Notes: a model not told the origin generated them from the sequence alone. Shown: positions 17,649 to 54,193, numbered from the whole stretch's first letter. The stretch: DNA of 63,982 bases, filler included, from an uncultured Clostridia bacterium (GCA_964482715.1; 4 parts of 4 records of this genome joined end to end with filler, not necessarily neighbours in it); one strand, 5' to 3'. Translations and numbers: made by a program.

Positions 17649-17748
17649 NNNNNNNNNNNNNNNNNNNNNNNNNNNNNNNNNNNNNNNNNNNNTTAATTAA
17701 TTAANNNNNNNNNNNNNNNNNNNNNNNNNNNNNNNNNNNNNNNNNNNN
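17649..17748. other. Artificial contig linker
   Basis: N44-TTAATTAATTAA-N44 (stops in all six frames). Confidence 0.97.
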
Positions 17749-35259: not shown

Positions 35260-35359
35260 NNNNNNNNNNNNNNNNNNNNNNNNNNNNNNNNNNNNNNNNN
35301 NNNTTAATTAATTAANNNNNNNNNNNNNNNNNNNNNNNNNNNNNNNNNNNNNNNNNNNN
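35260..35359. other. Artificial contig linker
   Basis: N44-TTAATTAATTAA-N44. Confidence 0.97.
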
Positions 35360-35805: not shown

Positions 35806-36076
35806 CCTTCCTCCTCCTTTCCAAAATTATTTATTTGAACTCTCTCCCCATTACTCTTCTGTTACACTTTTTTCCGCCACCTCTGATTGGCTTCAGGGAT
35901 TTAAAACCCTTTACTTCCCCTTTTTTTACCACCTCCTTTCATTACAAAAGCTCACCAATTGGTAAAAATATACCCTGCTTTTCTGTTTTTGTCAACTACT
36001 CCTACCCTGCCATCTTGGTTATATTACCAGCCCTTCAGAAATAGTCAATAATAACATATTCCAATTCTTAAATTTG

Positions 36077-36565: not shown

Positions 36566-37780
36566 TTATATTTCCTCCTGCTTTATTCGCAAAAATCTTC
36601 TCTTTCCTACCTGAAGAATATGTTCCTTATTAACAGAAAGCATGGCATCTACACTTTTTATTTTCTCCCCATCCCATCTTACTCCTCCTTGCTGAATTAA
36701 TCTTCTCGCCTCAGAGCCGCTTTTAGCTAATCCCGTTAACTTCAAAAGTTCCACCACCCACATTTTACCATCAGCTATTTTTTCTGGATTTATCTGGTAA
36801 GAAGGTATTTCCGAAGGAATCTCCTTTCTGGAAAAAACCGTTTCAAATGTCTCGGCCTCTTTTTTAGCTTCCTCCTCTCCATGGTAAAACTTAACCAGCT
36901 CAAAAGCAAGTCTTGCCTTAGCTTCTTTGGGATGCAGTTTTCCCTTTCTAAATTGATTTTCCAGCGTGTTTATTTTAGTTTCCGGGAAAGTGGTAAGAAG
37001 GCGAAAATACCGAAAAATGAGTTCATCAGGGATAGACATTATTTTCCCGTACATTTCTCTTGCTGGTTCGGTGATGCCTATGTAATTTCCAAGAGATTTG
37101 CTCATTTTTTCTTTTCCATCAAGCCCTTCCAGAATGGGCATAGTGATGATTACCTGGGGTGATTGCCTGTAGGATTTTTGAATATGTCTTCCAAGAAGTA
37201 AGTTAAATTTCTGGTCAGTTCCTCCTATTTCCACATCAGCTTTAAGAGCCACAGAATCATATGCTTGCATTAAAGGATATAAAAATTCATGAAGTCCAAT
37301 GGGCAGGTTTTGTTTGTACCTGAGATAAAAATCATCTCGTTCCAGCATTCTGGCCACGGTATAACGTGAAGCCAGTTTTAACACTCTGGAAAAATTCATC
37401 TTGCTCAGCCACTCGGAATTATACATAATTTCAGTTTTACGAGGATCAAGTATCTTAAAGGCCTGTTCTTTATAGGTTCTGGCATTTATTCTTATTTTTT
37501 CCGCTGAAAGAGATGGCCTTGTTTTGATTCTACCACTTGGGTCTCCTATACGGGCAGTAAAATCTCCAATAAGTAGAATAACCTTATGCCCCAGATCCTG
37601 GAAAGTGCGGAGCTTCAGGAGAATCACAGAGTGACCAAGATGAATATCTGGAGTGGTTGGGTCAACTCCAAATTTTACTTTCAATGAGCCTTTTTGCTTT
37701 ATCTTTCTTGCAAGCTCGTGTTTATGAATTATCTCCACTGTATTCCTTTCTATAAGAGAAATCTGCCTTTGTACATCCAT
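36566..37780 (-). CDS. tyrS: Tyrosine--tRNA ligase
   Basis: GVDPT..HLGH, YPLMQAYD, GGTDQ, KMSKS, C-terminal S4 domain. Confidence 0.97.
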   Translation of the reverse strand: MDVQRQISLIERNTVEIIHKHELARKIKQKGSLKVKFGVDPTTPDIHLGHSVILLKLRTFQDLGHKVILLIGDFTARIGDPSGRIKTRPSLSAEKIRINARTYKEQAFKILDPRKTEIMYNSEWLSKMNFSRVLKLASRYTVARMLERDDFYLRYKQNLPIGLHEFLYPLMQAYDSVALKADVEIGGTDQKFNLLLGRHIQKSYRQSPQVIITMPILEGLDGKEKMSKSLGNYIGITEPAREMYGKIMSIPDELIFRYFRLLTTFPETKINTLENQFRKGKLHPKEAKARLAFELVKFYHGEEEAKKEAETFETVFSRKEIPSEIPSYQINPEKIADGKMWVVELLKLTGLAKSGSEARRLIQQGGVRWDGEKIKSVDAMLSVNKEHILQVGKRRFLRIKQEEI

Positions 37781-37784
37781 TTAA

Positions 37785-38741
37785 TCACCTTTTTAGGATC
37801 TTTTGAGTTTGAGGAATTTCTTTCAATAGAATCTCAATTATCTTATCTGCACATTTTTCAGAAGAGGGAAAATCCTCTCTCTGAAGCCAGATTATTCTCC
37901 TTTCTTTCTTGAACCAGGTGAGCTGACGTTTGGAAAATCTTCGAGTATCTCTCTTTATCAGTTGTATGGCCTCATCCAGCGAAATTTCACCTTTAAGGTA
38001 ACGCAAAATCTGACGATATCCCAGACCTTGCATGGAGGGAAGGCTATCATCACAGCCTCGCTCTGTCAGGGCTTTCACCTCCTCAACCAGGCCCTTTTCT
38101 ATCATTCTGTCCACTCTTTCCTCGATAATCCGGTACAGGGTGGGCCTTTTCCATTTCAGTCCCACCATTACCATTTTACCTTTGTATCCAAAAGTTTTAT
38201 CTCGCTGATGCCAGGAGATAGGAACTCTCGTAAGTTTGTAGACCTCCAGTGCTCTTATTATTCTTCTCTCATCGTGGGGATGAATACGAGAAGCTGCCTC
38301 CGGGTCAACTTGCCTTAATTCTCTGTAAAGGACATCAATTCCCTCAATTTTTGCTTGCTGTAAAAGCTCCTGACGTAATTTCCAGTTGGCTGAAGGTCCA
38401 GGGAAGATTCCATCAACTATGGCCTTAATGTAAAGACCCGTACCTCCAACCACAACTGGAAGCAGGTTTTCTCTCTGTAAATCTCTTATTATCTTTTCTG
38501 CCTTTTTTTTAAAATCAAAGACGGTGAAGACTTGCTCTGGATCTGCCACATCGATAAGATGATGGGGGACTTCCTTCCTTATCTCGGCAGATACTTTGTC
38601 CGTGCCAATATCCATTCCCCTGTAAATCTGACGTGAGTCAGCGGAAATGATCTCACCTTTTATGCTGTTTACCAGTTTAAGAGCAACTTCTGTTTTTCCT
38701 GATCCCGTAGGACCAACAATGATTAAGAGGGCATCTAACAC
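37785..38741 (-). CDS. miaA: tRNA dimethylallyltransferase
   Basis: GPTGSGKT, SADSRQIYRGMDIGT, GGTGLY, KRQLTWF. Confidence 0.96.
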   Translation of the reverse strand: MLDALLIIVGPTGSGKTEVALKLVNSIKGEIISADSRQIYRGMDIGTDKVSAEIRKEVPHHLIDVADPEQVFTVFDFKKKAEKIIRDLQRENLLPVVVGGTGLYIKAIVDGIFPGPSANWKLRQELLQQAKIEGIDVLYRELRQVDPEAASRIHPHDERRIIRALEVYKLTRVPISWHQRDKTFGYKGKMVMVGLKWKRPTLYRIIEERVDRMIEKGLVEEVKALTERGCDDSLPSMQGLGYRQILRYLKGEISLDEAIQLIKRDTRRFSKRQLTWFKKERRIIWLQREDFPSSEKCADKIIEILLKEIPQTQKILKR

Positions 38742-40048
38742 TTGATGATCTCACCCCTCAGAGCCCAGCAACCGGTTTTTTTAATTCTAACCCGAACGAA
38801 CTCCCCGATTAAATTTTTTTCAGCAGGAAATACCACTATTTTATTTTCTCGTGTTCTTCCCTGCAATTCATCAGGATTTTTCTCTGATGGTCCTTCAACT
38901 AAAACCTCAACCTCCTTTCCCATCCAGTAAAGATTTCTTTCTTCAGTGATTTTAAGCTGAAGTTCTATTAAGCGGCGAAGTCTTTTTTTCTTTATCACTT
39001 CGGGAATCTGACCATCTAACTTGGCTGCACGGGTGCCCGGCAGAGGAGAAAAGGCAAAGGTAAAAGCACCGTCAAATCTAACAAGCTCAAGCATCTTGAG
39101 AGTTTGCTCAAAATCTTCCTCTGTTTCTCCAGGGAATCCAACTATGATGTCGGTGGTCAAGCTTATTTCTGGAACTACTTCCCTCACCTTCGAAACAAGT
39201 TCCAGGTACTTTTCTCTGGTATATCCTCTTCTCATTCTTTCCAGCACTTTATTAGAACCGGCCTGCAAAGGAAGGTGTAAATGCTCACACACTTTATCCA
39301 ATCTGGACATAGCCAAAATTAATTTTTCACTCAGATCCTTGGGGTGAGAAGTAGTAAATCTTATACGTTTAACCTCCTTTATTTCATTTATCTTTTCAAG
39401 AAGGTCAGCAAAATCAAAAGACAGGGGTAAGTCCTTTCCGTAAGAATTTACGTTCTGTCCTAACAGAATAACCTCCTTATAGCCCTGTTCTACAGCCTGT
39501 TTTATTTCTTGCAAAATAGAATTAACCGGCCTGCTCCTTTCTCTCCCTCTCACATAGGGAACCATGCAATAGGAGCAAAAATTATTACAACCTCTCATTA
39601 CCGGGATGTATGCACTAACTTTACTTTTCCTCACTACAGGAAGTCCTTCAGGAATCTGGCCATCTGGTTCTACTTTAACTAAAGGTATTTTTTTTCGCTC
39701 AAAATCAGCGAGAAATTCGGGTAGATTGTGCAGATTAAAAGCCCCCCAGACTATGTCTACATGAGGAGCTTTTTCTCTTATTCTCCCACCCTCTTTCTGC
39801 GCTAAACAGCCTCCAACGCCTATGATAAGCCGGGGGTTTTTTCTTTTGAATTTTTTGAGCTCCCCAAGAAAGGAGTAAACCTTGTTTTTTACTTTTTCCC
39901 TTACATAACAGGTATTAACTACAACAAAATCTGCTTCTCCCGGTTCGGAGGTTAAGGTGAATCCCTCTCTTTGAAGAAGCCCTGCTATAACCTCCGAATC
40001 ATATTCGTTCATCTGACAACCATAAGTTTTAATATATACTCTGGACAC
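38735..40048 (-). CDS. miaB: tRNA methylthiotransferase MiaB
   Basis: TYGCQMNEYDSE, NTC, CNNFCSYC, RFTTSHP, TRAM domain. Confidence 0.95.
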   Translation of the reverse strand: MSRVYIKTYGCQMNEYDSEVIAGLLQREGFTLTSEPGEADFVVVNTCYVREKVKNKVYSFLGELKKFKRKNPRLIIGVGGCLAQKEGGRIREKAPHVDIVWGAFNLHNLPEFLADFERKKIPLVKVEPDGQIPEGLPVVRKSKVSAYIPVMRGCNNFCSYCMVPYVRGRERSRPVNSILQEIKQAVEQGYKEVILLGQNVNSYGKDLPLSFDFADLLEKINEIKEVKRIRFTTSHPKDLSEKLILAMSRLDKVCEHLHLPLQAGSNKVLERMRRGYTREKYLELVSKVREVVPEISLTTDIIVGFPGETEEDFEQTLKMLELVRFDGAFTFAFSPLPGTRAAKLDGQIPEVIKKKRLRRLIELQLKITEERNLYWMGKEVEVLVEGPSEKNPDELQGRTRENKIVVFPAEKNLIGEFVRVRIKKTGCWALRGEIIKC

Positions 40049-40055
40049 TTCTAAC

Positions 40056-40898
40056 TCAGGTATCTCTTATTCTCTCCAATTTTTTTTCTTTAAACTTTTT
40101 TAATTCCCGGAGAACGGTTTCAGGAACATAAACTTTTCCAATTAAAACTTCATCTTTTGCCTCTCCATGACAATCAGAACCACCTGTTACTATAAGATCG
40201 TATTTGTGGGCAATTTCAATATAATGCCGGGTAATCTTTACATCATGAGTGCTGTGGTAAGCCTCAATGCCCTCAAGTCCTGCCTCTACCAGCCGTGGAA
40301 TAAGATCATCTCTCCTGGAAAGAAAAGGGTGAGCCAGAACAGGAATTCCTCCAGCTTCAAGAATTAAACCTATAACCTCAAAAGGTGAAATTTTAATTCT
40401 TTCTATATAAGCTGGTTTTCCCGGATTTAGCCACTCTTCAAAAGCTTCATCAATTGATCGCACATACCCTTTTTCTACCATACAACGAGCAATGTGCAGT
40501 CTGCTTACAACCCCCTTAGGAGCGAGCCTATCAAGCTCTCTTGGATCTATCCACATTCCCAGCTCTTTTAATCTTTTAAGTAATTTTTCATTTCTCTTTA
40601 TTCGAACTTCCTGCAAAAAATCAAGTTTATCCAGGAACTCTTTATGTTTCCAGTCCAGGTAATAACCCAAGATGTGAATCTCATCTTCCCCGACATCGGT
40701 GCTCATCTCCACTCCGGGGACAACCTCCAATTCCCATCTTTCTCCTGCTTTTAAAGCCTCCTCTATTCCTGCAACCGAGTCATGGTCAGTTATTGAGATA
40801 GCTATCAGACCTTTCTCCTTAGCCAGTTTTACCACTTCTTCAGGAGTAAAGGTTCCATCAGAATAAACAGTATGAATGTGAAGATCAACTCCAGCCAA
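40056..40898 (-). CDS. PHP-domain phosphoesterase (TrpH/YciV-like)
   Basis: DLHIHT..SDG, ITDHD, HILG, LAHP, GGSDCHG. Confidence 0.9.
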   Translation of the reverse strand: MAGVDLHIHTVYSDGTFTPEEVVKLAKEKGLIAISITDHDSVAGIEEALKAGERWELEVVPGVEMSTDVGEDEIHILGYYLDWKHKEFLDKLDFLQEVRIKRNEKLLKRLKELGMWIDPRELDRLAPKGVVSRLHIARCMVEKGYVRSIDEAFEEWLNPGKPAYIERIKISPFEVIGLILEAGGIPVLAHPFLSRRDDLIPRLVEAGLEGIEAYHSTHDVKITRHYIEIAHKYDLIVTGGSDCHGEAKDEVLIGKVYVPETVLRELKKFKEKKLERIRDT

Positions 40899-41065
40899 CC
40901 TTTTCTCCTTGTTTTATTTTTTAGAACACCTTTTTGTCTTCATCCAGTGAGAGATCTCTCACCAAAGCTATCCTGTCTCTCCTTTCCTGTAGGGATGAGA
41001 TTAAATTCTGGTTATAATACAAAACCTCAAGAAATTGTCAACCGGCATCTGTTCTCTGTTTACTC

Positions 41066-41094
41066 TTGACGGATTTTTAAGAGTGTGGTATATT
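41066..41094 (+). promoter_or_regulatory. sigma70 promoter of HU gene
   Basis: TTGACG-17 bp-TATATT with TG extension. Confidence 0.6.
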
Positions 41095-41135
41095 CAGAAT
41101 TTGAACTAAAATAGCGAGAAAGGGGGTGAGAGACT

Positions 41136-41408
41136 TTGAACAAGGCCGAACTTGTGGAACAGGTAGCCGGAGAAGTGGGATTAACTAAAAAAGATGTAAA
41201 TAACGTTATCGATGCGATGACGTCAGCTATCACCGATGCTCTTGCCAAAAGAGACAAGGTAACGTTGGTGGGATTTGGAACTTTTCTGGTCCAGAAAAGA
41301 AAGGCCCGTCAGGGAGTAAATCCTCAAACTGGTGCCAAAATAAACATTCCCGAAAAAGAAGTCCCCAAGTTTCGCCCTGGTAGAGCCTTAAGAGAAGCAA
41401 TAGGTTAA
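41136..41408 (+). CDS. hup: DNA-binding protein HU
   Basis: MNKAELV...VTLVGFGTF...RQGVNPQTG...PKFRPG. Confidence 0.96.
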   Translation: MNKAELVEQVAGEVGLTKKDVNNVIDAMTSAITDALAKRDKVTLVGFGTFLVQKRKARQGVNPQTGAKINIPEKEVPKFRPGRALREAIG

Positions 41409-41416
41409 TTGTGGCT

Positions 41417-41442
41417 CAGGGGGGAAATATATTGCCCCCCTG
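41417..41442 (+). terminator. Hairpin after HU
   Basis: CAGGGGGG...CCCCCCTG; weak U-tract. Confidence 0.5.
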
Positions 41443-41476
41443 GTGTCCTTAAAAAATATATAAAAATCTGGTGGCA

Positions 41477-41818
41477 ATGATTGATCGTTATGATTTTGGA
41501 AAGATTACCATAGGAGGAAAAAACTATAGTAGCGATGTTATTATATTCCCTGATAAGATAAAAGACAACTGGTGGAGGAAACAAGGACATTTATTACTTC
41601 CAGAAGATCTTGGAGAGGTAGTTAAAGAAAAGCCCGACATTTTAGTTGTGGGTACGGGGTATTCTGGATTGATGCAGGTTCCCGAGTCAACCGTAAAATG
41701 GCTTAAAGAGCAAGGAATAAAAGTAGAAATAAAACCCACCCGTGAGGCCTGCAGCATTTTCAACAGACTTTTATCGTCCAATAAAAAAGTAATAGCCGTC
41801 CTTCACCTTACCTGTTAA
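41477..41818 (+). CDS. Mth938-like (DUF498) protein
   Basis: IDRYDFG.I.IGG..Y.SD, WWR..GH, VVGTG, C-terminal HLTC. Confidence 0.88.
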   Translation: MIDRYDFGKITIGGKNYSSDVIIFPDKIKDNWWRKQGHLLLPEDLGEVVKEKPDILVVGTGYSGLMQVPESTVKWLKEQGIKVEIKPTREACSIFNRLLSSNKKVIAVLHLTC

Positions 41819-41905
41819 AAGACAGAGAAATTTTAACTTCCAGGGTCCAAATTGACAAAGAGCTTTTATTTGCTAATAATTTGGAACTAAAAGGGGGGTT
41901 CACTG

Positions 41906-42989
41906 ATGCTTGATGAGATTAAATTAACCGTGGCAAAGAAGAAATTAGAGGAAATAAGAGGCTTTCTTTGAGATTGAAAAGATAAACAATAAAATAAAGA
42001 AGCTTGAAAAACAGCTCTCCAGTCCGGACTTCTGGAAAGAAAATGACCGCACAAATGTGTTGCAAAGGCTAAGTTTTCTTAAAGAACAGGTCAGCAAATG
42101 GCAGAAACTCTTTAATTTGTATGAGGAAGTTGTAACTTTAAACGATCTTTTAAAAGAAGAAAAAGATTTAGAGCTGGAGAAGGAACTGAATAAGAAGTTT
42201 TTTCTCTTGCAAGATTTGCTGGAGAAACTGCATATTCAGTCTTTACTCCGTGGAAAACACGATCAGGCAAACGCTATATTATCCATTCATCCAGGTGCCG
42301 GGGGGACTGATTCCTGCGATTGGGCTCAGATTCTTCTCCGCATGTATATTAACTGGGCAACCGATAAAGGATACAGGATAAGAGAAGTAGAATGTATACC
42401 CGGAGAAGAGGCAGGAATTAAAAGTGCTACCTTAATTATAGAGGGAAGTTTCGCCTATGGTTATCTTAAAGAAGAGGTAGGTATTCATCGATTGGTCAGA
42501 ATCTCTCCTTTTGATGCATCTCACCGGCGTCATACTTCCTTTGCCGCGGTGGATGTTATCCCGGAAACTGAGGAAGAGGAAATAGAACTAAAAGAAGGCG
42601 ATCTAAAAATTGAAACCTTTAGAGCTGGAGGACCAGGTGGTCAGCACGTCAATGTTACCGATTCAGCAGTCAGGATTACCCATTTACCCACGGGTATAGT
42701 GGTTCAATGTCAGGATCAGAGATCCCAGCATAAAAATAAAGCACTGGCTCTTAGAATTTTAAGATCCCGACTCTATAATCTAAAAGAGATTGAGAAGAGG
42801 AAAAAACTGCAGGAAAGATACCAGGAGAAGGCAAGAATTGAATGGGGAAACCAGGTCAGATCCTACATTCTTCATCCTTATAAATTGGTCAAGGATCACA
42901 GAACAGGTCTGGAAACTGCAGATGTTGAATCTGTTTTTGCCGGAAAATTAGATTCTTTTATCCTGGCTTCTTTAAAACAAAAAGACTAA
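41906..42989 (+). CDS. prfB: Peptide chain release factor 2 (programmed +1 frameshift at CTT-TGA 41966-41971)
   Basis: 21-codon first segment MLDEIK...IRGFL ends at TGA; the +1 frame continues EIEK...PDFW into the ORF with SPF and GGQ motifs. Confidence 0.95.
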
Positions 42990-43027
42990 TTTTATTCAAG
43001 TCAACTTAGCTTACAACGGAGGAAAGC

Positions 43028-44197
43028 ATGGGATACTATATAGGAAGGGAACGTAAGGCAAGAAAGGCCTACGGATTTGATGAGGTTGCTCTTGTTCCAG
43101 GAAATAAGACAATTGATCCAGAAGATGTCGACATTAGCTGGAAAATAGGAGATTTCACTTTTTCCATTCCTATCCTGGCTTCAGCTATGGATGGAGTGGT
43201 AGACGTAGGGTTCGCAATTAAAATGGGAAAACTGGGAGGACTTGCCGTTTTAAATCTGGGAGGAATCCAGACTCGCTATGAAAATCCACAAAAGGTAATC
43301 GAAGAGATAATCCATTCTTCACCCAAAGAAGCGGTGGAAATAATTCAGAAGATATACAAAGAACCCATTAAAGATGAACTAATTGAGAAAAGGGTCAAAG
43401 AAATCAAGAAAGAAAATGTGCCGGTTGCTGTATCCTGCATTCCTCAAGAAGCAGAAAGACTTGGACCCTTAGCCCAGAAAGCTGGAGCCGATATCTTTGT
43501 GGTTCAGGCTACCGTAGCTACAGCTCGATATATATCCTCACGAAAAAAGGCCCTTGATTTTAAGACTTTTTGTCAAAAAATGTCCATCCCGGTAATTGCA
43601 GGAAACTGTGTGACCTATGAAGCTGCCTATGAACTTATGGAGACGGGAGTTGATGCTATTCTGGTAGGTGTGGGACCTGGAGCGGCCTGCACTACAAGGG
43701 AAGTTCTTGGTGTAGGTGTCCCCCAGGTAACGGCTACCATTGATGTGGCAGTTGCTCGCGATGACTATTTAAAACAATCCGGGCGTTACGTCTCCATAAT
43801 AACCGATGGAGGAATGAGAACAGGGGGTGACATATGTAAAGCTCTTGCCTCTGGGGCAGATGCGGTAATGATTGGTTCAGCCTTTGCCCGGGCTAAAGAG
43901 GCACCTGGAAAAGGCTACCACTGGGGAATGGCTACCTCAGACGAGAACCTCCCGCGCGGAGCAAGAGTTTGGGTTGGAACCACCGGGACTCTAAAAGAGA
44001 TCCTTTACGGTCCGGCTCGTCTGGACGATGGCTCCCAGAACCTTGCCTGGGCTATAAAAACAAGCATGGGTTACTGTGGGGTTTCCAATATTAGAGAAAT
44101 GCACAAGGTGGAAATGGTCATAGCTCCTTCTATTAAAAGTGAAGGCAAATTCTTCCAGGAAACACAACGTTTAATAACAAGAAAAAGGGAAGGCTAA
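43028..44197 (+). CDS. GuaB3-family IMP dehydrogenase-related protein (no CBS domains)
   Basis: [36 protein letters not shown]. Confidence 0.85.
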
Positions 44198-44382
44198 CTA
44201 AATCGCACCCGACCCGCTTTGATGCAGGAGGTGCAAACATAAGCACGAATAAAACTGCCATTAATTTTAATTCTTTTTCTCTGCAAATTGGGCAGCCACC
44301 TTCTCTTCGTCCTGTGTCCGGACCTGCTTACCTTGTGGCCAACAGAGGGGGCTTTTCCACATATATAGCATTTTCGAGCCAT
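44194..44382 (-). CDS. rpmB: 50S ribosomal protein L28
   Basis: [15 protein letters not shown]...[17 protein letters not shown]. Confidence 0.96.
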
Positions 44383-44481
44383 CTTTACTCCTTTTATCTT
44401 TTTTGTTGTATTAAAATAGCAAATTTTTATCCCATGACAAGGGTGCTACATCTAAAGTAAAAATTCCCGGAGTGATAAAAA

Positions 44482-45888
44482 ATGGATTATCAAAAAATAT
44501 CTGATAAAATTCTAAGACGAATTGAAGCTGTAGCCGGAAAACAGCAAGTTTTAACTGAACCTGAAGACCTCGAGGCTTACTCTCACGATGAAACTCCCGG
44601 AATTAGCTTTCTTCCCGAAGTTGTGGTTAAAGTGAAAGAAAAACAGCAGATTGCTGAACTTCTTGACCTTTGCAACAGGGAAAGGATACCTCTGACACCC
44701 AGAGGCGGAGGAACAGGATTAACCGGAGGTGCTATTCCTTTAAAAGGTGGCTTAGTAATAAGCTTTGAGCGAATGGCTGAAATCAAAGATATAGATCCCC
44801 AAAACTCTATGGTTGTGGTGGAGCCAGGAGTTATCACCGGGAATTTACAAAGAGAGCTTGCCCGATATGATTTATTTTACCCGGTAAATCCGGCCAGTCT
44901 TGACAGCTGCACCATAGGTGGTAACGTTGCCGAATCTTCTTCGGGAGCAAATGCTGTAAAGTATGGAGGGACAAGAGACTACGTGTGCGGATTAGAGGCT
45001 ATTTTACCGGGAGGAGGAAAGATAAAAGCTGGAGGTAAACTGGTAAAAAATGTAACAGATCACAGATTTATTCAGGTTTTACTTGGTTCCGAAGGAATTC
45101 TGGCAGTCTTTACGGAAATTACCCTCAGAGTTATTCCTCTTCCGGCAGTCAAAATTGATCTTATTATACCCTTAAAAAAAATATTACATATCCAAAATAT
45201 CGTTACCAAAATCTGGGAAAAGAAAATTCTGCCAACAAGCATCGAATATATTGATAAAACAACCCATCAAATTACAAAAGGCTACGTTGAACATCCTCCT
45301 TCTTTTCCTCAGGCTACCTGTTATCTTCTTGTTGGACTGGATGGAAAAGAGGAAAATGAAGTTATGCAAGATGCAGAGAAAATAGGTAACTTATGTATGG
45401 AAGAGGGAGTAGAAGATATTTTGATAGCCCAGGAGCGGTCAGAGCAGGAAAAACTCTGGAAATTCAGACAGTCAATTAGAGATGCCCTTTTATCGATAAG
45501 TCCCTTAATGATAGAGGAAGATATAGTTGTTCCTCGTAGCAGAATAACAGAGTTTTTGGAATATGTTCATAATTTATGTAAGGAGAGAGAAATTAATGCT
45601 GGAATATTTGGTCATTTGGGAGATGGAAATGTGCACATTAATTTTCTAAATCAGGATTTTGAAGAAAAGGTAAGGTGGGAAGCAAAAATAGAAAAGGTTC
45701 TTCAGAAATTATTTAAAAGGGCTATCTTTATGGGAGGTAAAATCTCTGGTGAACACGGCATCGGGCTGGTCAAAAAGGCCTATCTTCCTCTTGTATTAAG
45801 CCAACAAGAAATAGATATAATGAAGAAATTAAAACTCACTTTTGATCCCAAAAACATATTAAACCCGGGAAAGATATTTGACCTTTAG
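44482..45888 (+). CDS. FAD-linked oxidase, GlcD/D-lactate dehydrogenase-like
   Basis: PRGGGTGLTGG, TIGGNVA, KYG.TRDYV, GHLGDGNVH, SGEHGIG, DPKNILNPGK. Confidence 0.9.
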   Translation: MDYQKISDKILRRIEAVAGKQQVLTEPEDLEAYSHDETPGISFLPEVVVKVKEKQQIAELLDLCNRERIPLTPRGGGTGLTGGAIPLKGGLVISFERMAEIKDIDPQNSMVVVEPGVITGNLQRELARYDLFYPVNPASLDSCTIGGNVAESSSGANAVKYGGTRDYVCGLEAILPGGGKIKAGGKLVKNVTDHRFIQVLLGSEGILAVFTEITLRVIPLPAVKIDLIIPLKKILHIQNIVTKIWEKKILPTSIEYIDKTTHQITKGYVEHPPSFPQATCYLLVGLDGKEENEVMQDAEKIGNLCMEEGVEDILIAQERSEQEKLWKFRQSIRDALLSISPLMIEEDIVVPRSRITEFLEYVHNLCKEREINAGIFGHLGDGNVHINFLNQDFEEKVRWEAKIEKVLQKLFKRAIFMGGKISGEHGIGLVKKAYLPLVLSQQEIDIMKKLKLTFDPKNILNPGKIFDL

Positions 45889-45918
45889 ACAAAGAGAAGG
45901 GGCAGGGAGATTAAAAAA

Positions 45919-46731
45919 TTGGCTCTCTGGAGTCAAAAAATAGCCGAGATAGAAATTGATGGTTTTGTGGTGCCAGCAGTAAACTCAAGCTGGCACCATG
46001 GTGGAGCGTGGGCATTTTACCTGGAACTAAACCCCCATGAGCTGGGTGCTAAAATTCCTGCCGGTCACTTTTATAATTTAAAAATCAACGTTTATGCCCC
46101 CAGAGTAAAATTTGGTCTTTCTCCTGGTGAAATAGAAAAGATAGGAATAGAAACAGAGAAAATTCTTGATGGTTATACTTACGAGCTTGATCGTGCAGAA
46201 ATTGTGGGAAAAAATTACCGAAAAATGTTTACAGGAACTCTTATTGCCTATATTATTGCTCTTCTTACTGCATATGGCTGGTGGTTCATCTGGTTTAGAC
46301 AGCCTTTTCATGCCTTTGTAGGAATAGACAACTGGTGGAAAAACCTGAAAGCCAGAAGACTTTCTCGTTATCATGTAAGAGAGGTCACGTTAGGAAAAGA
46401 TGAAGCAAAAATTGAAGCTGTAAATGAGGTATATCGTTACTATAAGGGCTTAAGAGGAAGATATCTTGAAGTATGCCAGAAAATGAGGGATTATTGCAAA
46501 TCAAGAGCCAGGACAAATCCTGTATTTAAAAAAATGGAAAGGGCTTATCGAGAAATAATCCTTTCAGAGCTGGAAGATAGTTACCTGGTAAAAATGGTGG
46601 CTCACACACTTCCTCAAAAGGTAGTTCGCTTCTTCCTTGGTGATATGGTTTTAATCCCCAAAATACCTGTACCTCGTGTTTTAATTCCGGTTAGAGATCT
46701 TGATTTTGACTTATCCGAGTATCTGGAGTAA
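45919..46731 (+). CDS. Hypothetical protein with one central TM helix
   Basis: 270-aa ORF, TTG start after GGGAG; TM segment MFTGTLIAYIIALLTAYGWWFIWF. Confidence 0.75.
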   Translation: MALWSQKIAEIEIDGFVVPAVNSSWHHGGAWAFYLELNPHELGAKIPAGHFYNLKINVYAPRVKFGLSPGEIEKIGIETEKILDGYTYELDRAEIVGKNYRKMFTGTLIAYIIALLTAYGWWFIWFRQPFHAFVGIDNWWKNLKARRLSRYHVREVTLGKDEAKIEAVNEVYRYYKGLRGRYLEVCQKMRDYCKSRARTNPVFKKMERAYREIILSELEDSYLVKMVAHTLPQKVVRFFLGDMVLIPKIPVPRVLIPVRDLDFDLSEYLE

Positions 46732-46736
46732 TAAAA

Positions 46737-47555
46737 ATGGCCAAAATAGATCTTTACCAGGTATGGCAAAAGGATGGATATACTCTGGTTACCCATTCTG
46801 ATCCTGTATTTTTCACTGACAGGCTGATAAGAAACCAAAAGGTTTTTCGGAGAAAGCAGACTCTGGAAATAATACTTAACGTGGAAAGAACAGATGAAGA
46901 ACTTGTTAGAGTAGCAGAAAATTCTCCTTATCTTAAGGTAGTAGAAGAAAGGGGGGAACTTAAAATTGTTCCCCAACAAGAAATATCACCTGAACTGGAA
47001 AAGACTCTTCTTTGTGCTTTTCGAGATACTTTATTTCAAGAAGAAGCCATGATTAACCAGTACCTTCTATACAGAGATGTCTTTCTGTATCATGGAAGAT
47101 ACAATTACGGAGGATTCTACGGAATCATTCATCGTCTGTTTCCGCTGGTTTTTATCATGCGGGTGGTCAAAGGCTATCAACCAATGGTCTGGCAAATGCT
47201 TCTTTTAGATCCCTATTTTCTAAATCGAGTAAAAGAAAAACTTATCCTCCACTACCAGGAAATAGAAGAAGGGATAAATCGGGCTTTTGAAAATATTACA
47301 TTGATCCAGAAAGAGAACATAGCTCTTCGCGTTCTGAACAACATAGTGAGGAAAAATGAACAAAATGAGGGTTTTAATAAAGCTGCAAAATTATGTGACA
47401 GATTGGGTCTTGGATTTTTAAAGGATTTTTACTGGGTTGCCACACAAGCTACTGAAGATACCGAATGGGATATCTACAAAAAGGCCCCTATTCCATTTAC
47501 ACCCTGGCCTGAAAGTTTAAAAAAGAGGGGAGAGAACCGAAGCTATGAAATTTAA
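46737..47555 (+). CDS. Hypothetical protein
   Basis: 272-aa ORF 5 bp after the previous stop; overlaps the next gene. Confidence 0.78.
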   Translation: MAKIDLYQVWQKDGYTLVTHSDPVFFTDRLIRNQKVFRRKQTLEIILNVERTDEELVRVAENSPYLKVVEERGELKIVPQQEISPELEKTLLCAFRDTLFQEEAMINQYLLYRDVFLYHGRYNYGGFYGIIHRLFPLVFIMRVVKGYQPMVWQMLLLDPYFLNRVKEKLILHYQEIEEGINRAFENITLIQKENIALRVLNNIVRKNEQNEGFNKAAKLCDRLGLGFLKDFYWVATQATEDTEWDIYKKAPIPFTPWPESLKKRGENRSYEI

Positions 47556-48771
47556 AAACTGGTTTAGCAGAAAAGTTGACAAAAAGGTGGATCAGGTCAT
47601 CAACCGCTTTAACATATACCTTTCCGCCTATGACAGTGGTGTGATTGACTATAGCTTAATAAATCAAAAGGAAATTGTTTCTCTGGCCGGACTTAGTTAT
47701 CCTCAGTTTATGGAAAGGGTTTACAGCATTGTGGAGAAAAATAAATTGCCAATAAAATTTGTCCCTGTTAAAGATTTTAGAAATCCGGAACAGGACTTCA
47801 AAACTGAACCACTGGAGTACAAAATATATACACTGGAACTGGGTAACCCTTCCGCTTCCCACAAGATAGTTATTGAAGGAACATGTCATGGAGGAGAACG
47901 AATCCATTCTCTTACCTGTGTGGTTGTTGCCCTTTCTCTGACAAAAGAGGGTCCCTTAAGAGACAAAATTTTAGAAAACTCACACATTTCCATTCTACCT
48001 GCAGCTGATCCTCTTGGCTGGCATAAAAAAACCAGAGCCTATGTAAATATGCGAGGGGAGGAAACGAGAAATCCTGTAGTAGTTCACATGAACCATATTA
48101 GAAATCTTTTTGGATGGAGTGATACAAACAGTGTATTTGGCAGGAGTCTGGAAGAGGCAAAAAGTCCAAGAGTAAGATCCATAGAGAAACATTTCCTCGA
48201 AGTCTTTGGTCCACCTACACTTTACAACAGTTTACATGAAACAGTTATGTTTGGTTCTCACCTCTTTTACGGAAACGCAGGAGTTATGATTCTTCTACAT
48301 TATTACTTCCCTGAAGAGATAAGAGAAACTATTTTTTCTCTTCATTATGCTTTAACTTCAACCGAAAAAATAGATCGCAAATTAAGAAGGTTTAATCCAC
48401 TGGCAGAGATAAAATATACAGAAGATTATCTGGAGTATCACCCCGCTTTTGAAAAGGCAAAATCTATCAGGAACTACATAAAAAGATTGGGAATAAGAAC
48501 ATTTGAGGATAAGTTTTTCCGGGTTGAAAGGGAACTACCTTATCTTGGTCCCAAATCTGAAGTGAGTATAGCTGAGAGCTTGCTTATCATGGGACCTTTA
48601 TTTGTAAAAGCGGGAATCGTTCTGGCTCCTGACTATTACGAGAAGATGAGTGGTACTGTGAGTCAAACCATAGAGACTTTTTCCCAGTCAGAAAGCGAGA
48701 GAGTCCTTCAGGGGGCGGCTTTTATTGATGGTACTTTAAGATGTGAAGTTTTAGGAGAATATTATCCATGA
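47545..48771 (+). CDS. M14-family zinc carboxypeptidase/deacylase-like protein
   Basis: HGGE (HxxE), ILPAADPLG (~PxxNPDG), DTNSVF (~DLNRNF), SLHE, C-terminal TIET. Confidence 0.72.
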   Translation: MKFKNWFSRKVDKKVDQVINRFNIYLSAYDSGVIDYSLINQKEIVSLAGLSYPQFMERVYSIVEKNKLPIKFVPVKDFRNPEQDFKTEPLEYKIYTLELGNPSASHKIVIEGTCHGGERIHSLTCVVVALSLTKEGPLRDKILENSHISILPAADPLGWHKKTRAYVNMRGEETRNPVVVHMNHIRNLFGWSDTNSVFGRSLEEAKSPRVRSIEKHFLEVFGPPTLYNSLHETVMFGSHLFYGNAGVMILLHYYFPEEIRETIFSLHYALTSTEKIDRKLRRFNPLAEIKYTEDYLEYHPAFEKAKSIRNYIKRLGIRTFEDKFFRVERELPYLGPKSEVSIAESLLIMGPLFVKAGIVLAPDYYEKMSGTVSQTIETFSQSESERVLQGAAFIDGTLRCEVLGEYYP

Positions 48772-51110
48772 ATAACCTTGTTTATAACATTGAATATCTT
48801 AAGATTCCTCATCCACTGGAATCTGGAAAATACATAATTAAAAGTCACGATTATCAATTTGAGCGTTTGATGCAGGAGATATACCCTCTCTATACCAACC
48901 CCCTTCATAATTTCCCCCGAATTCAACGAAAAGTCTATGACCCCTTCAATTCAGACCAAAATGAACTTAAAGAAAAGGTGAAGAATTATGACAGGAACCT
49001 CTGGAGAAAGATAAGAGGTGAAATTGGTATAAAAATTGTAAAAGGTTGGGCCAGACTGGGAGTTTGTTTTGCTATCTCCTATATAATCTGGACTCTTTTG
49101 TGGAGTTTTCCCTGGCTTTATGCTTCAATTGATGCAGCATTTAGAGCAATTGGTGATTTTTTAAGCCCCTACGCTATCGGAGTCATGATACTTGCCCCTT
49201 CTATTGCTGGCTTTTATTTTACCCTAACAGGCAAAAATTCTCTCTTCAAGCTTTACAAAAAATTAAAACCTCTCGAATTTTACCCTAAACTGGGGGAGGA
49301 TCATACTATCCGCTTTATAGAAGATCTTAAAATTTTAAATAAAAACATCAGGAAAAAAGCAGGTAGATCTCACCCAGTAGTTAAGGAGATAGAAACTCTG
49401 ATAAAATATATCCAGGAAAAAAACTGGGACAAAATAAAAGGTGCCCTGGATAATATTTTAAATTACATAAATGAAGATCCTCACTTCCCCTGGAGTGAAA
49501 AAGAAAATGTTATAGCAATGACAGAAGATCTCCTTTATCACCTATCAGGAAAGTTTACATTTGCCCCTTTAAAGGTTATATCTTCAAACCATAACAATAA
49601 GATTATCTCACCAAAAGAAAAAGAAAAATTGGCGGGTCTATCTCATCTCTTTGCCTCCCGTGAATTTGTCCTTCTGCGGGAAAAAATCCTGAGCAAATTT
49701 GACTCTCTCACAAGAGCATCCTCGACCAGGGAAAGGATGCGCATCTGTCAAGAAATTTCTTTTCTTTTTAACAAGATGGTATTTTTATGCTCAAGCTACC
49801 ATCTTGGCGATTCTTATCTTCCTTATGAGAAAGGCAGGATTTTAAAAGATTTTTACTATCATCTTTTTGTCACTTTCGGGAAGATGAGCTTTTTCTTGCG
49901 AAAGAAAAAGCCCGGCAACTTTAAATCTTCATTGTTAATAAGAAAGATGATCCATCAACTAAAGAGATCCCTGAATCAGGAAGTAAAAAACAACAAATTA
50001 TTACAATTTTTCAGCACTCACACAGGTGGTGTTATTCTATCAATTGGTATATTAGCCGGTGTTATGCTCTTAACTGGTCTTCATTTTCTAACCTACAACG
50101 ATTTTTCGGTAGTTCATTGGTACAGATTTTCCTACCAGGGATTCTTAGGTGAAGAAGTTTTAACTAAAGATTTTTCTGCTCCTGCTTTGATCAACTGGGG
50201 AAAGGTTAAGATCTTCTGGTATCCACCCAAACCATTCACTTTTGTCCACAATGTAAGTCTGAAAAAGATATATTATGTAAATATCTTTATGGTTTTAAAA
50301 GAAACCGAGCCTTCAGGATTAATCGATCGATTCTTTCATTTTTTCCGGGAAGAATGGGGAAGAGGTTATTCAGGAGTTGAGCTTCGTTTTTCCTACAAGG
50401 TGGTACAGCCAGAGCTATGGTCAGAATACGATTATGATGGTAGAGGGAGTGAACGTCTTGCTCGGGACCTTGAGTCTTATATTTTACAGTATACAGAGAA
50501 AAAGAGACAGGAATTTAGAAGAAAGCTGTACCAAGAAGAGATGGATAAAATTGAATCCCATTTTAGAAAATGCCTGACTCAGGGAAAAATAAGCGAGTGG
50601 ATCCGCAGATTTCTTTATCCATCTCTCTTTGATGTCTATCGTACAGGCTCTATGTATGAACGATATGTCAGTGGACTTAGATGGCTACAGGAGCATCCTC
50701 GAATGGCCACCCAGCCTGAGTGGAAAGAATTTGTAGAACATGAAATCAAAAATATAGAAAAACTCATGCAACAGGAAAATGAAACGCTTATCTCCCGTCC
50801 TCTTAAAGTTAAAAAGCTAATTAAAAGACCTTCTGTATCCGAGCTGCAACGACACCCCAATCTCTATCAAACACTTTCATACCTGGTGGTTGACGATCTT
50901 ATTAATGGAAAAATCCTGGAGGATGTTGAAAAATCAGCAATTACTGGTAGTCCAGATCCTGTAACAGAGGGTCTCATTGACTGGTTGAAAAAAAACTGCA
51001 GGTTACAGGAACTTGTCGGTATTAAATTGATAGATGTTGAGCGTCATGTTCGCAAGGTGAGTGCTCTTGGATGGCAAAATAAACTTAGAAAAAGAGAAAA
51101 TTTAATTTGA
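48768..51110 (+). CDS. Large membrane protein with a putative C-terminal divergent SPFH/band-7 domain
   Basis: 2 TMs, helical region, third TM, then SVV..WYPPKPF..V..V..VELRFSYKVVQP..GIKLIDVE resembling the SPFH pattern. Confidence 0.55.
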   Translation: MNNLVYNIEYLKIPHPLESGKYIIKSHDYQFERLMQEIYPLYTNPLHNFPRIQRKVYDPFNSDQNELKEKVKNYDRNLWRKIRGEIGIKIVKGWARLGVCFAISYIIWTLLWSFPWLYASIDAAFRAIGDFLSPYAIGVMILAPSIAGFYFTLTGKNSLFKLYKKLKPLEFYPKLGEDHTIRFIEDLKILNKNIRKKAGRSHPVVKEIETLIKYIQEKNWDKIKGALDNILNYINEDPHFPWSEKENVIAMTEDLLYHLSGKFTFAPLKVISSNHNNKIISPKEKEKLAGLSHLFASREFVLLREKILSKFDSLTRASSTRERMRICQEISFLFNKMVFLCSSYHLGDSYLPYEKGRILKDFYYHLFVTFGKMSFFLRKKKPGNFKSSLLIRKMIHQLKRSLNQEVKNNKLLQFFSTHTGGVILSIGILAGVMLLTGLHFLTYNDFSVVHWYRFSYQGFLGEEVLTKDFSAPALINWGKVKIFWYPPKPFTFVHNVSLKKIYYVNIFMVLKETEPSGLIDRFFHFFREEWGRGYSGVELRFSYKVVQPELWSEYDYDGRGSERLARDLESYILQYTEKKRQEFRRKLYQEEMDKIESHFRKCLTQGKISEWIRRFLYPSLFDVYRTGSMYERYVSGLRWLQEHPRMATQPEWKEFVEHEIKNIEKLMQQENETLISRPLKVKKLIKRPSVSELQRHPNLYQTLSYLVVDDLINGKILEDVEKSAITGSPDPVTEGLIDWLKKNCRLQELVGIKLIDVERHVRKVSALGWQNKLRKRENLI

Positions 51111-51122
51111 GGATAAGAAAAA

Positions 51123-52247
51123 TTGAAAAGTACAGGCTTTCAAATAGCTGCGGGGATGCTGGGAACCTTAATATTCATCTTTCTGGTTGGTTTTGTCGAT
51201 TGGTGGTTAACTTCAAGACAACCACTCGAGCCCGGGGAAAGGGCTATAATAAGGGAAGTGTGGAAAAAACAGGGACCTTTGCTCGGACCCTCCGCCCCCC
51301 CTTATGAAGTGAGAGTGGTGGAAAATAACTCATCCAGCCGGATTACCTTTTTCATCCAGCCATATCCTTTTGGCTGTGTTGAAGAAATAATAAAAAGAGA
51401 TGAGGTAAAAAATTTTTCCTTTAAACTTCCTCTCTGGACCAAGGACACAATCACTCAAGACCCCAATGACTCCAGTATTACCCGAATTCTTTTGATTAAA
51501 GGTGAATACAAAATTGAGAACGTCAATTTATACGCCAGAAACTTAGATTATCGTGAGCTTCCATATACCAGGAAAGGAGACCTTCTTTATCCGGTAAAAG
51601 CTTTTCTGATTCAGCAAGGAAGAGACCCAGAGATGGCCAGCAGAGAGGAGCTTTTTTCCGAAGTAATTTACTTTGAGTTTTCTCATTTTTTATCTGACAG
51701 AATAAACGAGATGGGAGAGAGTATAGCCCAGAAATATGCTGTCCTGGCAAAAGCAATAAGAGAAAATAAGATCACTTCTTCGTCAGAAAAGGACAAGTTT
51801 GTTGCCGACTTCTTAAAAAAATACCCCTGGTACAAGCTGGAACCCCGCTCCCTGGAAAAACTACGGGAAAATCCTGAGGTTCAGGAACTTTTTCAAAAGT
51901 ATTTTGAAGCTGTAAGAAAGGAAGATCCTCAACTTATGACTTCCTTTTTAGGAGAGATAGAAGAATTTTTTGAAAGATACGTCCGGGAAAATCCAGAGGC
52001 TTATGACCGGGAAAAATGGGACTATGTCAGGTCCCTACTTTTGAAACCAGATGTTCTTCCGCCTGAATATAAGCCGGAATTTGTTTATCCCTTTGTAGAA
52101 AAAAAATTGCAGAAGATCAGGGAAAATTATATTGAAAACATGCAAGAGAAAATTCTGAAAAATTACGGAGTTAAATTACTGACTCTTAAGTTAGAGATGC
52201 AGGAAGATCTGACAGCAAGATATCCTTACATCCTCATGCAAAGATAA
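51123..52247 (+). CDS. Membrane-anchored divergent SPFH/band-7 (HflC/HflK-like) protein
   Basis: N-terminal TM then LEPGERAII, FFIQPYPFGCVE, LWTKD, YKIEN, YGVKLLTLKL. Confidence 0.62.
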   Translation: MKSTGFQIAAGMLGTLIFIFLVGFVDWWLTSRQPLEPGERAIIREVWKKQGPLLGPSAPPYEVRVVENNSSSRITFFIQPYPFGCVEEIIKRDEVKNFSFKLPLWTKDTITQDPNDSSITRILLIKGEYKIENVNLYARNLDYRELPYTRKGDLLYPVKAFLIQQGRDPEMASREELFSEVIYFEFSHFLSDRINEMGESIAQKYAVLAKAIRENKITSSSEKDKFVADFLKKYPWYKLEPRSLEKLRENPEVQELFQKYFEAVRKEDPQLMTSFLGEIEEFFERYVRENPEAYDREKWDYVRSLLLKPDVLPPEYKPEFVYPFVEKKLQKIRENYIENMQEKILKNYGVKLLTLKLEMQEDLTARYPYILMQR

Positions 52248-52267
52248 CCTTTCTCTATTTTTCCTGT

Positions 52268-52367
52268 NNNNNNNNNNNNNNNNNNNNNNNNNNNNNNNNN
52301 NNNNNNNNNNNTTAATTAATTAANNNNNNNNNNNNNNNNNNNNNNNNNNNNNNNNNNNNNNNNNNNN
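52268..52367. other. Artificial contig linker
   Basis: N44-TTAATTAATTAA-N44. Confidence 0.97.
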
Positions 52368-52936: not shown

Positions 52937-54193
52937 TTATGTCCCCTCTTGCCAGGAAGTTAGGTATTTTTCCTGTTCCGGGGTTAATTTGTCTATTTTA
53001 ATTCCCATACTATTTAATTTTAAATATGCAACTTCTCTGTCAATCTCCTCCGGGACCCTGTAAACTTGTTTATTTAGATTTTTTCCCTCTTTTACCAGAT
53101 ACTCACAGGAAAGTGCCTGATTGGCAAAACTCATATCCATGACCATAGAAGGGTGCCCTTCGGCTGCTGCCAGATTAACCAGCCTCCCTTGAGCAAGTAA
53201 ATTTATTCTCCTTCCATCCTTCAGCTTAAATTCTTCAACATTTTTTCGTGTTTTTCTTCTGCTTACAGCTATTTGGGAAAGATCATCTAAATTTACCTCT
53301 ACATTGAAATGACCTGCATTAGCTACAATTGCACCATCTTTCATTAAAAGAAAGTGCTCCTTTTTAATTACGTCTTTATCACCCGTACTGGTGACAAATA
53401 TATCTCCCCGGGGACATGCTTCTGTCAAAGGCATCACCCAGAAACCATCCATTACCGCTTCCAGAGCTTTTAGGGGATCTATCTCGCAGATTATCACCCT
53501 TGCCCCCATTCCGCGTGCACGCATAGCAATGCCTCTCCCACACCAGCCATAACCACAAACCACAAAAGTTGAACCAGCCAGAAGAAAATTTGTAGCTCTC
53601 AATATCCCATCAATGGTGGATTGTCCTGTGCCATACCGGTTATCAAATAAATGCTTGGTTAGGGCATCATTTACCGCTATAATAGGATATTTTAGTTTTC
53701 CCTCTCTGGCCAAACTTTTAAGTCTTATAACTCCGGTTGTTGTTTCCTCGGTACCGCCTAAAATTTTATCGGTAAAACCAAATTCCCCGGAGTGAATAGT
53801 GGAAACAAGATCTGCCCCGTCATCCATGGTTATATTCGGTTCTATCTCCAGAGTTTTATGAATGTGCTGGTAATAGGTATCTCGGTCTTCTCCCCGTATG
53901 GCAAAAACTTCTATCTCGAAATCCCTCACCAGAGAAGCTGCCACATCATCCTGAGTAGAAAGAGGATTAGAAGCACAAAGTCTAACATGAGCTCCACCAG
54001 CTTTTAGTGTATTCACGAGATTGGCTGTCTCTGATGTGACATGTAAGCAGGCAGCAATTTTGATACCATTTAGCGGTTTTTCTTGAGAAAATCTTTCTCT
54101 TATTTTCTCCAAAACCTTCATTTTGGAGCCTGCCCACTCTATCTTTACTTTACCCTCTGCAGAAAATCTTGCATCTCTGATATCTGATTCCAT
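52937..54193 (-). CDS. ahcY: Adenosylhomocysteinase
   Basis: [49 protein letters not shown]. Confidence 0.97.

Follow-up and report, generated by a model that had tools for sequence, protein, structure and literature searches.

A five-gene cluster of SPFH-like membrane proteins and an M14-type zinc hydrolase, probably an undescribed membrane protease complex

The window analysed here is a stretch of 63,982 nucleotides from the genome assembly GCA_964482715.1 (1.57 Mb, 94.7% complete). It comprises four contigs joined by N spacers, one of which (G000:C37, window 35360–52267) carries a cluster of five genes, O1 to O5, on the plus strand at 45919–52247. The cluster probably represents an undescribed membrane protease complex. 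Its genes are tightly coupled, the products O4 and O5 showed an SPFH-like fold in structural models, O3 was akin to peptidases of family M14 and has an intact zinc site, and the set was conserved across phyla and domains.

That the five genes encode one membrane complex, with an SPFH-fold scaffold of O4 and O5, O3 as a tethered M14-type hydrolase and no ATPase, was given an even chance. O4 and O5 would be anchored in the cytoplasmic membrane and expose very divergent SPFH-fold domains on its outer face, where these domains would form an oligomeric scaffold, possibly a ring. On the cytoplasmic side, the four-helix bundles of O4 and the membrane proteins O1 and O2 would jointly form a platform that keeps the signal-less O3 at the inner membrane face. 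O3, predicted to be catalytically competent, would trim or process membrane-proximal substrates, presumably peptides. The whole would be an ATP-independent analogue of the HflK/C–FtsH and stomatin–NfeD pairs. The physical assembly, the oligomeric ring, the topology, the substrate and the choice of peptidase over deacylase chemistry are points that we infer.

Gene order and conservation of the cluster

O1 (45919–46731, 270 amino acids) starts with TTG and is separated by a 5-nucleotide gap from O2 (46737–47555, 272 amino acids). O2 overlaps O3 (47545–48771, 408 amino acids) by 11 nucleotides, O3 overlaps O4 (48768–51110, 780 amino acids) by four nucleotides in an ATGA sequence, and a 12-nucleotide gap precedes O5 (51123–52247, 374 amino acids, TTG start). 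Five tightly spaced open reading frames in one orientation had been described in a first-pass annotation of the same DNA, and the spacing was found exactly as given there. A ribosome-binding site of the GGAG type was located 8–12 nucleotides upstream of all five starts. Each reading frame had homologues in other genomes, with 22–82% identity and in conserved order; the five are therefore real genes and not chance frames. The contig ends, as had been stated, 20 nucleotides after the O5 stop codon (52248–52267), with N spacers from 52268. The suggestion that the operon might continue beyond this point was not sustained, as O5 was the last gene in relatives of the same family and was followed by nadX and nadC for NAD synthesis. 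Scanning the sequence gave 15 promoter-like sites, in line with the 11.6 expected from shuffled sequence, and 13 terminator-like sites, with 4.8 expected, but the latter lay inside genes and marked no operon boundary.

The distribution of the genes was surveyed by profile search in 31 genomes of the source phylum, Aerophobota, and in 370 other bacterial genomes. Co-occurrence of the five genes in other genomes, which the first-pass annotation had named as a test, was confirmed within the family, in other phyla, and in permuted and fused forms. Three genomes of the same family (G001, G004 and G005) had the order glcD-O1-O2-O3-O4-O5, followed by nadX and nadC. All five genes were also present, in the order of the window, in the Atribacterota-type genomes G192 (complete, 2,269,744 bases) and G345. 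Other families of Aerophobota had the order O5, in a long form of 570–778 amino acids, O3, O4 and a single protein of 565–572 amino acids in which O2 is joined C-terminally to O1; the flanking genes differed.

A further arrangement, here called archaeal-type, was found on metagenome contigs. It consisted of an O1-like gene, a fusion of O2 and O3 of 618–635 amino acids that passed the Pfam M14 threshold, and separate genes for the N-terminal and the C-terminal module of O4. Its first gene was homologous to O1 (hhalign probability 98.5%, E 2.9e-15), while the third matched the O4 N-terminal module (96.2%, E 2.3e-9) and the fourth the C-terminal module (97.2%). The separate gene for the N-terminal module encoded 277–285 amino acids. 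Wherever a metagenome locus extended far enough, the fourth gene was present (8 of 8); the loci represent only two or three lineages. The source names given by NCBI for the protein clusters of the fusion form were Candidatus Bathyarchaeia, Hydrothermarchaeales and Aenigmatarchaeota. Among the other source names, the cultured Thermatribacter velox appeared in the cluster of the O3 orthologue of G192, and Caldatribacteriaceae was given for an O5 homologue.

In the fusion proteins of other lineages, which had 618–670 amino acids, O2 was joined N-terminally to the M14-like domain. The relationship was detected by BLASTP between O2 and the fusion protein P0031 (E 4.4e-10 in a set of 49 sequences), and the O2-side profile also matched the fusion proteins. 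Fusion or fission thus linked O1 with O2, O2 with O3, and the N-terminal with the C-terminal module of O4. Judged from sequence comparison, the gene set probably works together, for which conservation and fusions are the strongest evidence, and the three fusions argue for one physical complex.

The encoded proteins

No convincing family was found for any of the five proteins in Pfam, NCBIfam, PADLOC and PHROGs, and NCBIfam matched none of them. Pfam gave nothing credible for O1, O2 and O5 and a sub-threshold match to DUF2207_C for O4. No similarity between O4 and O5 was detected by BLASTP (best E 1.1). Profiles of O1/O2, O4 and O5 had no match at E < 0.09 among the PDB sequences, the single O3 sequence matched nothing meaningful there, and the O1+O2 fusion had no usable match in the ESM Atlas. 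NfeD models were matched by none of the five proteins, and an AAA or M41 domain was found neither in them nor in their relatives.

The sequence of O3 supported its assignment as a divergent M14-type zinc hydrolase, with family M14 taken in the wide sense. The M14 motifs that the first-pass annotation had reported for the third reading frame were present as HGGE (H115/E118), H231-E-T and T-x-E377-T-F. Putative zinc ligands are H115, E118 and H231, and R164 is the putative substrate-binding arginine. E377 is the putative general base, a glutamate near the C-terminus that corresponds to E270 of carboxypeptidase A. The three ligands were invariant in 13/13 family members. In the same alignment, the motifs H115-G-x-E118, D155-P-x-G158, T163(-R164), N195, H231-E-T and T375-x-E377-x-F379 were invariant or nearly so, and the active-site residues were kept in four fusion proteins as well. 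An alignment of 15 sequences that included Pfam-validated M14 proteins again showed H115, E118 and H231 as invariant, and E377 fell on the glutamate of 'TLE' in P0069 and P0062, whose scores on the M14 model were 126.6 and 72.3 bits.

When the O3 family profile was compared with the PDB, all five listed proteins were M14-type (best E 0.004), namely carboxypeptidase B twice, Francisella REP34, the uncharacterised protein 2qvp and carboxypeptidase D. The HGGE motif was aligned on the H-A-R-E zinc motif of carboxypeptidase B. The top match of O3 in the ESM Atlas (0.97, 210 shared features) was an M14 cluster, and the ten best named matches all belonged to that family or its clan. The O3 family is tiny, with 49 proteins at E <= 0.001 when 1.84 billion representatives were searched exhaustively with its profile. 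Pfam scans covered 38 of these, leaving aside two that represent the family itself and nine short fragments; 25 were above the M14 gathering score, one was below it and 12 had no match. P0028 and P0029, which are 43–44% identical to O3, passed with 24.9 and 28.1 bits, respectively, and NCBI names homologues at this identity 'M14 family zinc carboxypeptidase'. The O3 orthologue of G192 (24.6 bits) and the fusion protein at L070 (27.5 bits) passed as well.

O3 had neither a signal peptide nor a transmembrane anchor according to sequence and hydropathy. For O1, hydropathy indicated an N-terminal soluble domain of about 100 amino acids, a hydrophobic segment at residues 103–126 and a C-terminal part of about 145 amino acids. 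The central stretch of O2, residues 126–144 approximately, was weakly hydrophobic, while relatives had a distinct hairpin of two hydrophobic segments. The O2 part of the fusion proteins contained two short hydrophobic segments with a turn between them, which suggests a hairpin that holds the M14 domain at the cytoplasmic face.

AlphaFold models were obtained for O5 and O4. The O5 model, built on an alignment of 18 sequences (pLDDT 89.1, pTM 0.82), had an N-terminal helix at residues 2–31 that contains the transmembrane anchor (3–31), strands at 32–131, a helical insert at 134–348 and a closing strand at 350–363. The O4 model (m8313d78ec4f7, pLDDT 84.1) was composed of two modules. The N-terminal module (48768–50012, residues 1–415) contained a small beta/alpha domain at residues 1–58, transmembrane helices at about 93–113 and 133–153, and four-helix bundles at about 178–264 and 289–404. 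Its structural matches were only generic helical bundles, and a wide search with the full model gave generic four-helix bundles alone, matched to residues 178–404. The C-terminal module (50013–51110, residues 416–780) had a transmembrane anchor at 418–435, strands at 438–545, a helical insert at 548–750 and a closing strand at 752–765, and thus shared one order of secondary-structure elements with O5. In both proteins, the membrane anchor immediately preceded the SPFH-like domain, with the first strand at residue 32 in O5 and at residue 438 in O4. The first-pass annotation had read the last two reading frames as a transmembrane segment followed by SPFH-like motifs. Both indeed had a hydrophobic anchor with a beta-rich segment after it; in O4, these come only after the 415-residue N-terminal module with its two transmembrane helices.

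A band-7 or SPFH-like fold, which had been set beforehand as a test of the proposal, was seen in both models, and SPFH proteins led the Foldseek results for both. With O5, ranks 1–10 against the PDB were all SPFH proteins, including HflK/C (1.8e-3), prohibitin, stomatin (probability up to 0.99) and QmcA; erlin, flotillin and major vault protein followed lower in the list. With O4, HflK/C ranked first (E 5.7e-3, probability 0.95). A structural search of the whole PDB with O5 placed SPFH proteins in the top 9 of 9 rows among 48,161 chains. Compared with a whole isolated SPFH domain, O5 aligned over 101 of 106 residues with a root-mean-square deviation of 3.1. The top structural matches of O4 and O5 were HflK/C, stomatin, flotillin, prohibitin and erlin, with modest Z scores of 7–8.3.

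The motif W551..YDYDG.G..RL.RD567 of O4 (window 50418–50468) was invariant in 18/18 aligned O4 homologues and is located where the SPFH-like sheet meets the helical insert. Among 5.8 billion proteins, the families of O5, O4 and the archaeal protein like the O4 C-terminal module had 12, 10 and 22 members, respectively. Long O5 homologues (L017 6319–8652, L019 8182–9906) contained an insert of 200–400 residues with a weak LysM-like motif (Pfam E 0.005–0.04, below cut-off; PHROG lysM 9e-5). The motif was absent from the O5 of the window; in the long homologues, it would fit an extracytoplasmic location.

The topology was derived from the distribution of charged residues. In O4, four to five lysine or arginine residues were present on the near sides of each of the three transmembrane helices and none or one on the far sides. 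By the positive-inside rule, this bias points to a cytoplasmic location of the O4 N-terminus and bundles, and we infer that the SPFH-like domain of O4 lies outside. Basic N-termini also preceded the anchor in the long O5 homologue and in the archaeal proteins like the O4 C-terminal module. The charge bias of O5 itself was ambiguous.

Contrary evidence and alternative readings

Several findings weigh against the proposed complex, and they concern both the enzyme and the scaffold. O3 itself stayed below the cut-off of Pfam Peptidase_M14 (PF00246), with 15.3 bits (E 0.015, residues 93–163) and a gathering score of 21.6. The classical M14 enzymes bind the substrate carboxylate with an Asn-Arg dyad (N144/R145). 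The residues D193-x-N195...G199-R200 were conserved in the O3 family, yet MAFFT placed the canonical 'DLNRNFP' opposite residues 172–178, and no secure equivalent of the dyad was obtained. Neither O4 nor O5 matched the Band_7 hidden Markov model (PF01145) in a direct scan at E <= 1. A Band_7 search of the whole genome yielded three canonical SPFH genes elsewhere and nothing at the locus, and the G192 orthologues of O4 and O5 had no Band_7 match either. In hhalign comparisons with 33 canonical SPFH proteins of Aerophobota, O5 and the O4 C-terminal module reached probabilities of only 2–13% (P 0.002–0.04). Jackhmmer searches started from O5, the O4 C-terminal module or the archaeal form recruited no canonical SPFH protein, and O5 did not recruit the O4 C-terminal module. 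The coiled coil expected after the domain was missing in both models, where the chain ends 11–15 residues past the closing strand and the helices lie inside the domain. In known SPFH cages, the SPFH domain is followed by long coiled-coil helices (CC1/CC2), which build the cage wall, and by an oligomerisation region. Finally, the 5.1-Mb genome G269 had a reduced variant (L092, G269:C133, 3–2578) that encodes a 459-amino-acid O1/O2-like protein and a 399-amino-acid M14 protein (43.8 bits, passing Pfam) and has no SPFH-like gene beside this pair.

The SPFH reading of the first-pass annotation therefore stood for the fold seen in the models and failed for Band 7 membership at the sequence level and for the canonical coiled coil. 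Because of the missing Band_7 and jackhmmer matches, the weak hhalign results and the absent coiled coil, O4 and O5, as modelled, are called SPFH-like and are not filed as Band 7 members. The pairing of two SPFH proteins likewise applied to the set of the window, which includes both O4 and O5, but was not universal: the archaeal form has one SPFH-like protein and G269 none.

Since the Asn-Arg dyad was not placed with confidence, O3 may be a deacylase or amidase instead of a carboxypeptidase. The cluster would then be a small-molecule or lipid-linked module, in which O3 acts as a membrane-tethered AstE/AspA-like enzyme on an acyl-amino-acid, a lipopeptide or a lipid head group, and the membrane proteins deliver or sense the substrate. 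This is an unlikely reading, but it has several points in its favour. Relatives of O3 also matched the models of the AstE_AspA catalytic domain (PF24827) and of DUF2817 (PF10994), and in the fusion forms the hydrophobic hairpin ties the enzyme to the membrane. In G192 and G345 (L090 3920–6221, L091 6853–8950), the cluster was followed by genes for a HAD phosphatase and an Fe-ADH_2 protein of the glycerol-1-phosphate-dehydrogenase type, both co-oriented and tightly spaced. Neither the Aerophobota nor the archaeal loci had these neighbours, however. Peptidases of M14 proper came out best in Pfam and the PDB, and searches with O1, O2 and O4 gave no transporter-like fold. HD_5 genes (HD-GYP-like) were located upstream of the cluster in G192 and G345 in divergent direction, and the HAD, Fe-ADH_2 and HD_5 neighbours of these two genomes may indicate a lipid or signalling link.

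The likeness to SPFH proteins could also be a mere common alpha/beta arrangement, so that O4 and O5 would belong to an unrelated new fold class in a cluster that is nonetheless real. This reading, which partly overlaps the other alternatives, was judged rather improbable. It is favoured by Foldseek E values that were all above 1e-3, with no O5 match to the PDB at or below this value, by the lack of a significant sequence or profile link to SPFH proteins and by the absence of the canonical coiled coil. Against it, two independently built models ranked the same superfamily first, and SPFH proteins filled all nine top rows of the O5 search. The short hhalign matches, although weak, fell on both hallmark positions in the expected register, namely the first strand past the anchor and the 'YGV/GIK..V' strand that closes the domain. 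The architecture of an anchor followed by the domain is also the canonical one.

The occurrence of the cluster was patchy. O3 was detected in 17 of the 31 phylum genomes, O4 in 16 and both in 15, and only three of the 370 other bacterial genomes were matched (G192, G345 and G269). The exceptions to the joint presence of the two genes were a genome that is 57% complete, a fragment, and G013, in which a divergent O4-like gene adjoins O3. This G013 variant (L026, G013:C122, 7852–11498) comprised an O2-like protein (224 amino acids), O3 (383 amino acids) and a compact O4-like protein of 580 amino acids, with the same 'FGVRISQIKVEI' closing strand at its end. In G021, two full O3-O4 copies were located on G021:C33 and G021:C92, and one O3 copy had an in-frame TAG in a short piece.

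Such a distribution would suit a horizontally spread, mobile conflict or defence module of the membrane-acting abortive-infection type, as would the presence of the cluster in both bacteria and archaea, its two copies in G021 and the shuffled gene order between lineages. A function of this kind was nevertheless considered improbable. The best PADLOC matches were unconvincing (E 0.0073 and 0.078, over short stretches), and the usual effectors and sensors, such as a nuclease or an NTPase, were lacking. The flanks consisted of housekeeping genes, with no integrase, transposase or other defence gene in the flanks scanned, and the position between glcD and nadX was stable within the family. Between lineages, the flanks varied from glcD and nadX/nadC to aminotransferase and radical-SAM genes, glyQS, pgk/gap, or HAD and Fe-ADH genes; therefore, the module and not its neighbourhood is what is conserved.

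Cell-wall peptide remodelling is highly improbable. In this reading, O3 would act on murein peptides as an MpaA/Csd4-type carboxypeptidase or amidase that the membrane proteins position at the wall. Peptidoglycan peptidases do exist among M14-type enzymes, the SPFH-like domains were predicted to be extracytoplasmic and the long O5 homologues of other Aerophobota have a weak LysM-like motif, but this motif was lacking in the O5 of the window, O3 and all its relatives had neither a signal peptide nor an outward-facing anchor, and the cluster was found in Bathyarchaeia, Hydrothermarchaeales and Aenigmatarchaeota, which are not known to have murein. As a general function, peptidoglycan remodelling was rejected in view of the members from archaeal metagenome-assembled genomes and the missing export signal of O3.

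Upstream of the cluster, a gene for a GlcD-type FAD oxidase (window 44482–45888) was located in the same orientation with a 30-nucleotide gap. A GlcD-type gene also adjoined the cluster in a distant family (L025 14736–16085), there in divergent orientation, and its place beside the cluster in both families is probably residual synteny. No regulatory RNA such as a riboswitch was found by Rfam on the contig of the cluster; the sole match was a tRNA gene (RF00005, 59.6 bits) at the start of the next contig (52490–52580, minus strand), upstream of a gene for S-adenosylhomocysteine hydrolase (52937–54193, minus strand). The contigs are separated by N runs at window 17649–17748, 35260–35359 and 52268–52367; pairs of runs flank a 12-nucleotide 'ttaattaattaa' linker, and features are not readable across the joints.

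Relation to known SPFH systems

The closest parallel was provided by HflK/HflC–FtsH of Escherichia coli (PDB 7vhp/7vhq, 7wi3, 9cz2). In that system as in the cluster, adjacent genes encode two different SPFH-fold proteins with an N-terminal anchor, and the O4 and O5 models were structurally closest to HflK/HflC entries. HflK/C has its SPFH-type domain on the outer face of the membrane. The same location was predicted for the SPFH-type domain of the cluster, with a cytoplasmic zinc hydrolase held at the membrane. The partner of HflK/C is an M41 AAA protease, whereas that of the cluster is an M14-type hydrolase without an AAA+ module. Unlike HflK/C, O4 and O5 lack the Band_7 signature and the C-terminal coiled coil or cap and have a helical insert of 200 residues inside the domain. 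O1, O2 and the N-terminal module of O4 would be additional subunits or parts.

In the stomatin–NfeD operons (Pyrococcus horikoshii PH1511/PH1510; E. coli QmcA-YbbJ, PDB 8z5g), an SPFH protein is likewise coupled to a membrane-bound peptidase or partner, and stomatin and QmcA were among the top structural matches of O5. NfeD combines a ClpP-type serine protease with an OB-fold partner domain, and is the point of difference, as no NfeD match was obtained for the five proteins. The genome itself has a canonical operon of NfeD1b (ClpP-like) and a stomatin-type Band_7 protein (G000:C28; L042 1300–3400, minus strand) as well as a tandem Band_7 pair of the HflK/C type (G000:C4; L043 1384–3293, plus strand). 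The divergent cluster is therefore an addition to these systems and not a replacement.

Compared with peptidases of family M14, O3 showed the HxxE motif, the later histidine and the late glutamate in the same order. The distance between the second histidine and the glutamate was about 146 residues, unlike classical carboxypeptidase A, in which it is about 74 residues. O3 also differs in its predicted membrane tethering, for which O2 would serve as fusion partner or as neighbour in the operon. SPFH scaffolds also organise membrane proteases in mitochondria, as in prohibitin–m-AAA and SLP2–PARL–YME1L, and prohibitin was among the structural matches of O4 and O5. These mitochondrial prohibitin and SLP2 assemblies differ from the cluster in being eukaryotic, in containing ATP-dependent or rhomboid proteases, and in having canonical SPFH domains with coiled coils.

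To our knowledge, all known protease partners of SPFH proteins are of the AAA, ClpP-like or rhomboid type. The first-pass annotation knew of no described system with this gene set, and none combining SPFH and M14 proteins was found in the literature searched, which included passages of a survey of prokaryotic SPFH subfamilies (PMC2636767). The pairing of SPFH and NfeD genes in operons is documented in that survey, and neither 'peptidase' nor 'carboxypeptidase' occurred in the passages covered; further operon partners could be listed in its supplementary tables (PMC2636767).

A broader proposal is more tentative and was held to be less probable than an even chance. It states that the cluster represents a new branch of the SPFH superfamily, an ATP-independent scaffold around a tethered M14 carboxypeptidase, which has spread by horizontal transfer among slow-growing subsurface Aerophobota, Atribacterota, Bathyarchaeia, Hydrothermarchaeales and Aenigmatarchaeota. 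If true, it would be a fourth kind of SPFH–protease machine beside those with FtsH, NfeD/ClpP-like and rhomboid/AAA partners. With an M14-type zinc hydrolase as the partner of SPFH-fold proteins and no ATPase needed, it would extend a scaffold–protease design that recurs from bacteria to mitochondria, and it would mean that the SPFH fold is spread far more widely than the Band 7 model can recognise. Bench tests of the hypothesis are feasible, since the complete genome G192 has the full set and its O3 orthologue clusters with a protein of the cultured Thermatribacter velox. Five families of 'hypothetical' proteins would gain a working hypothesis, for a module of lineages dominant in energy-starved sediments and vents, whose biochemistry is almost unstudied.

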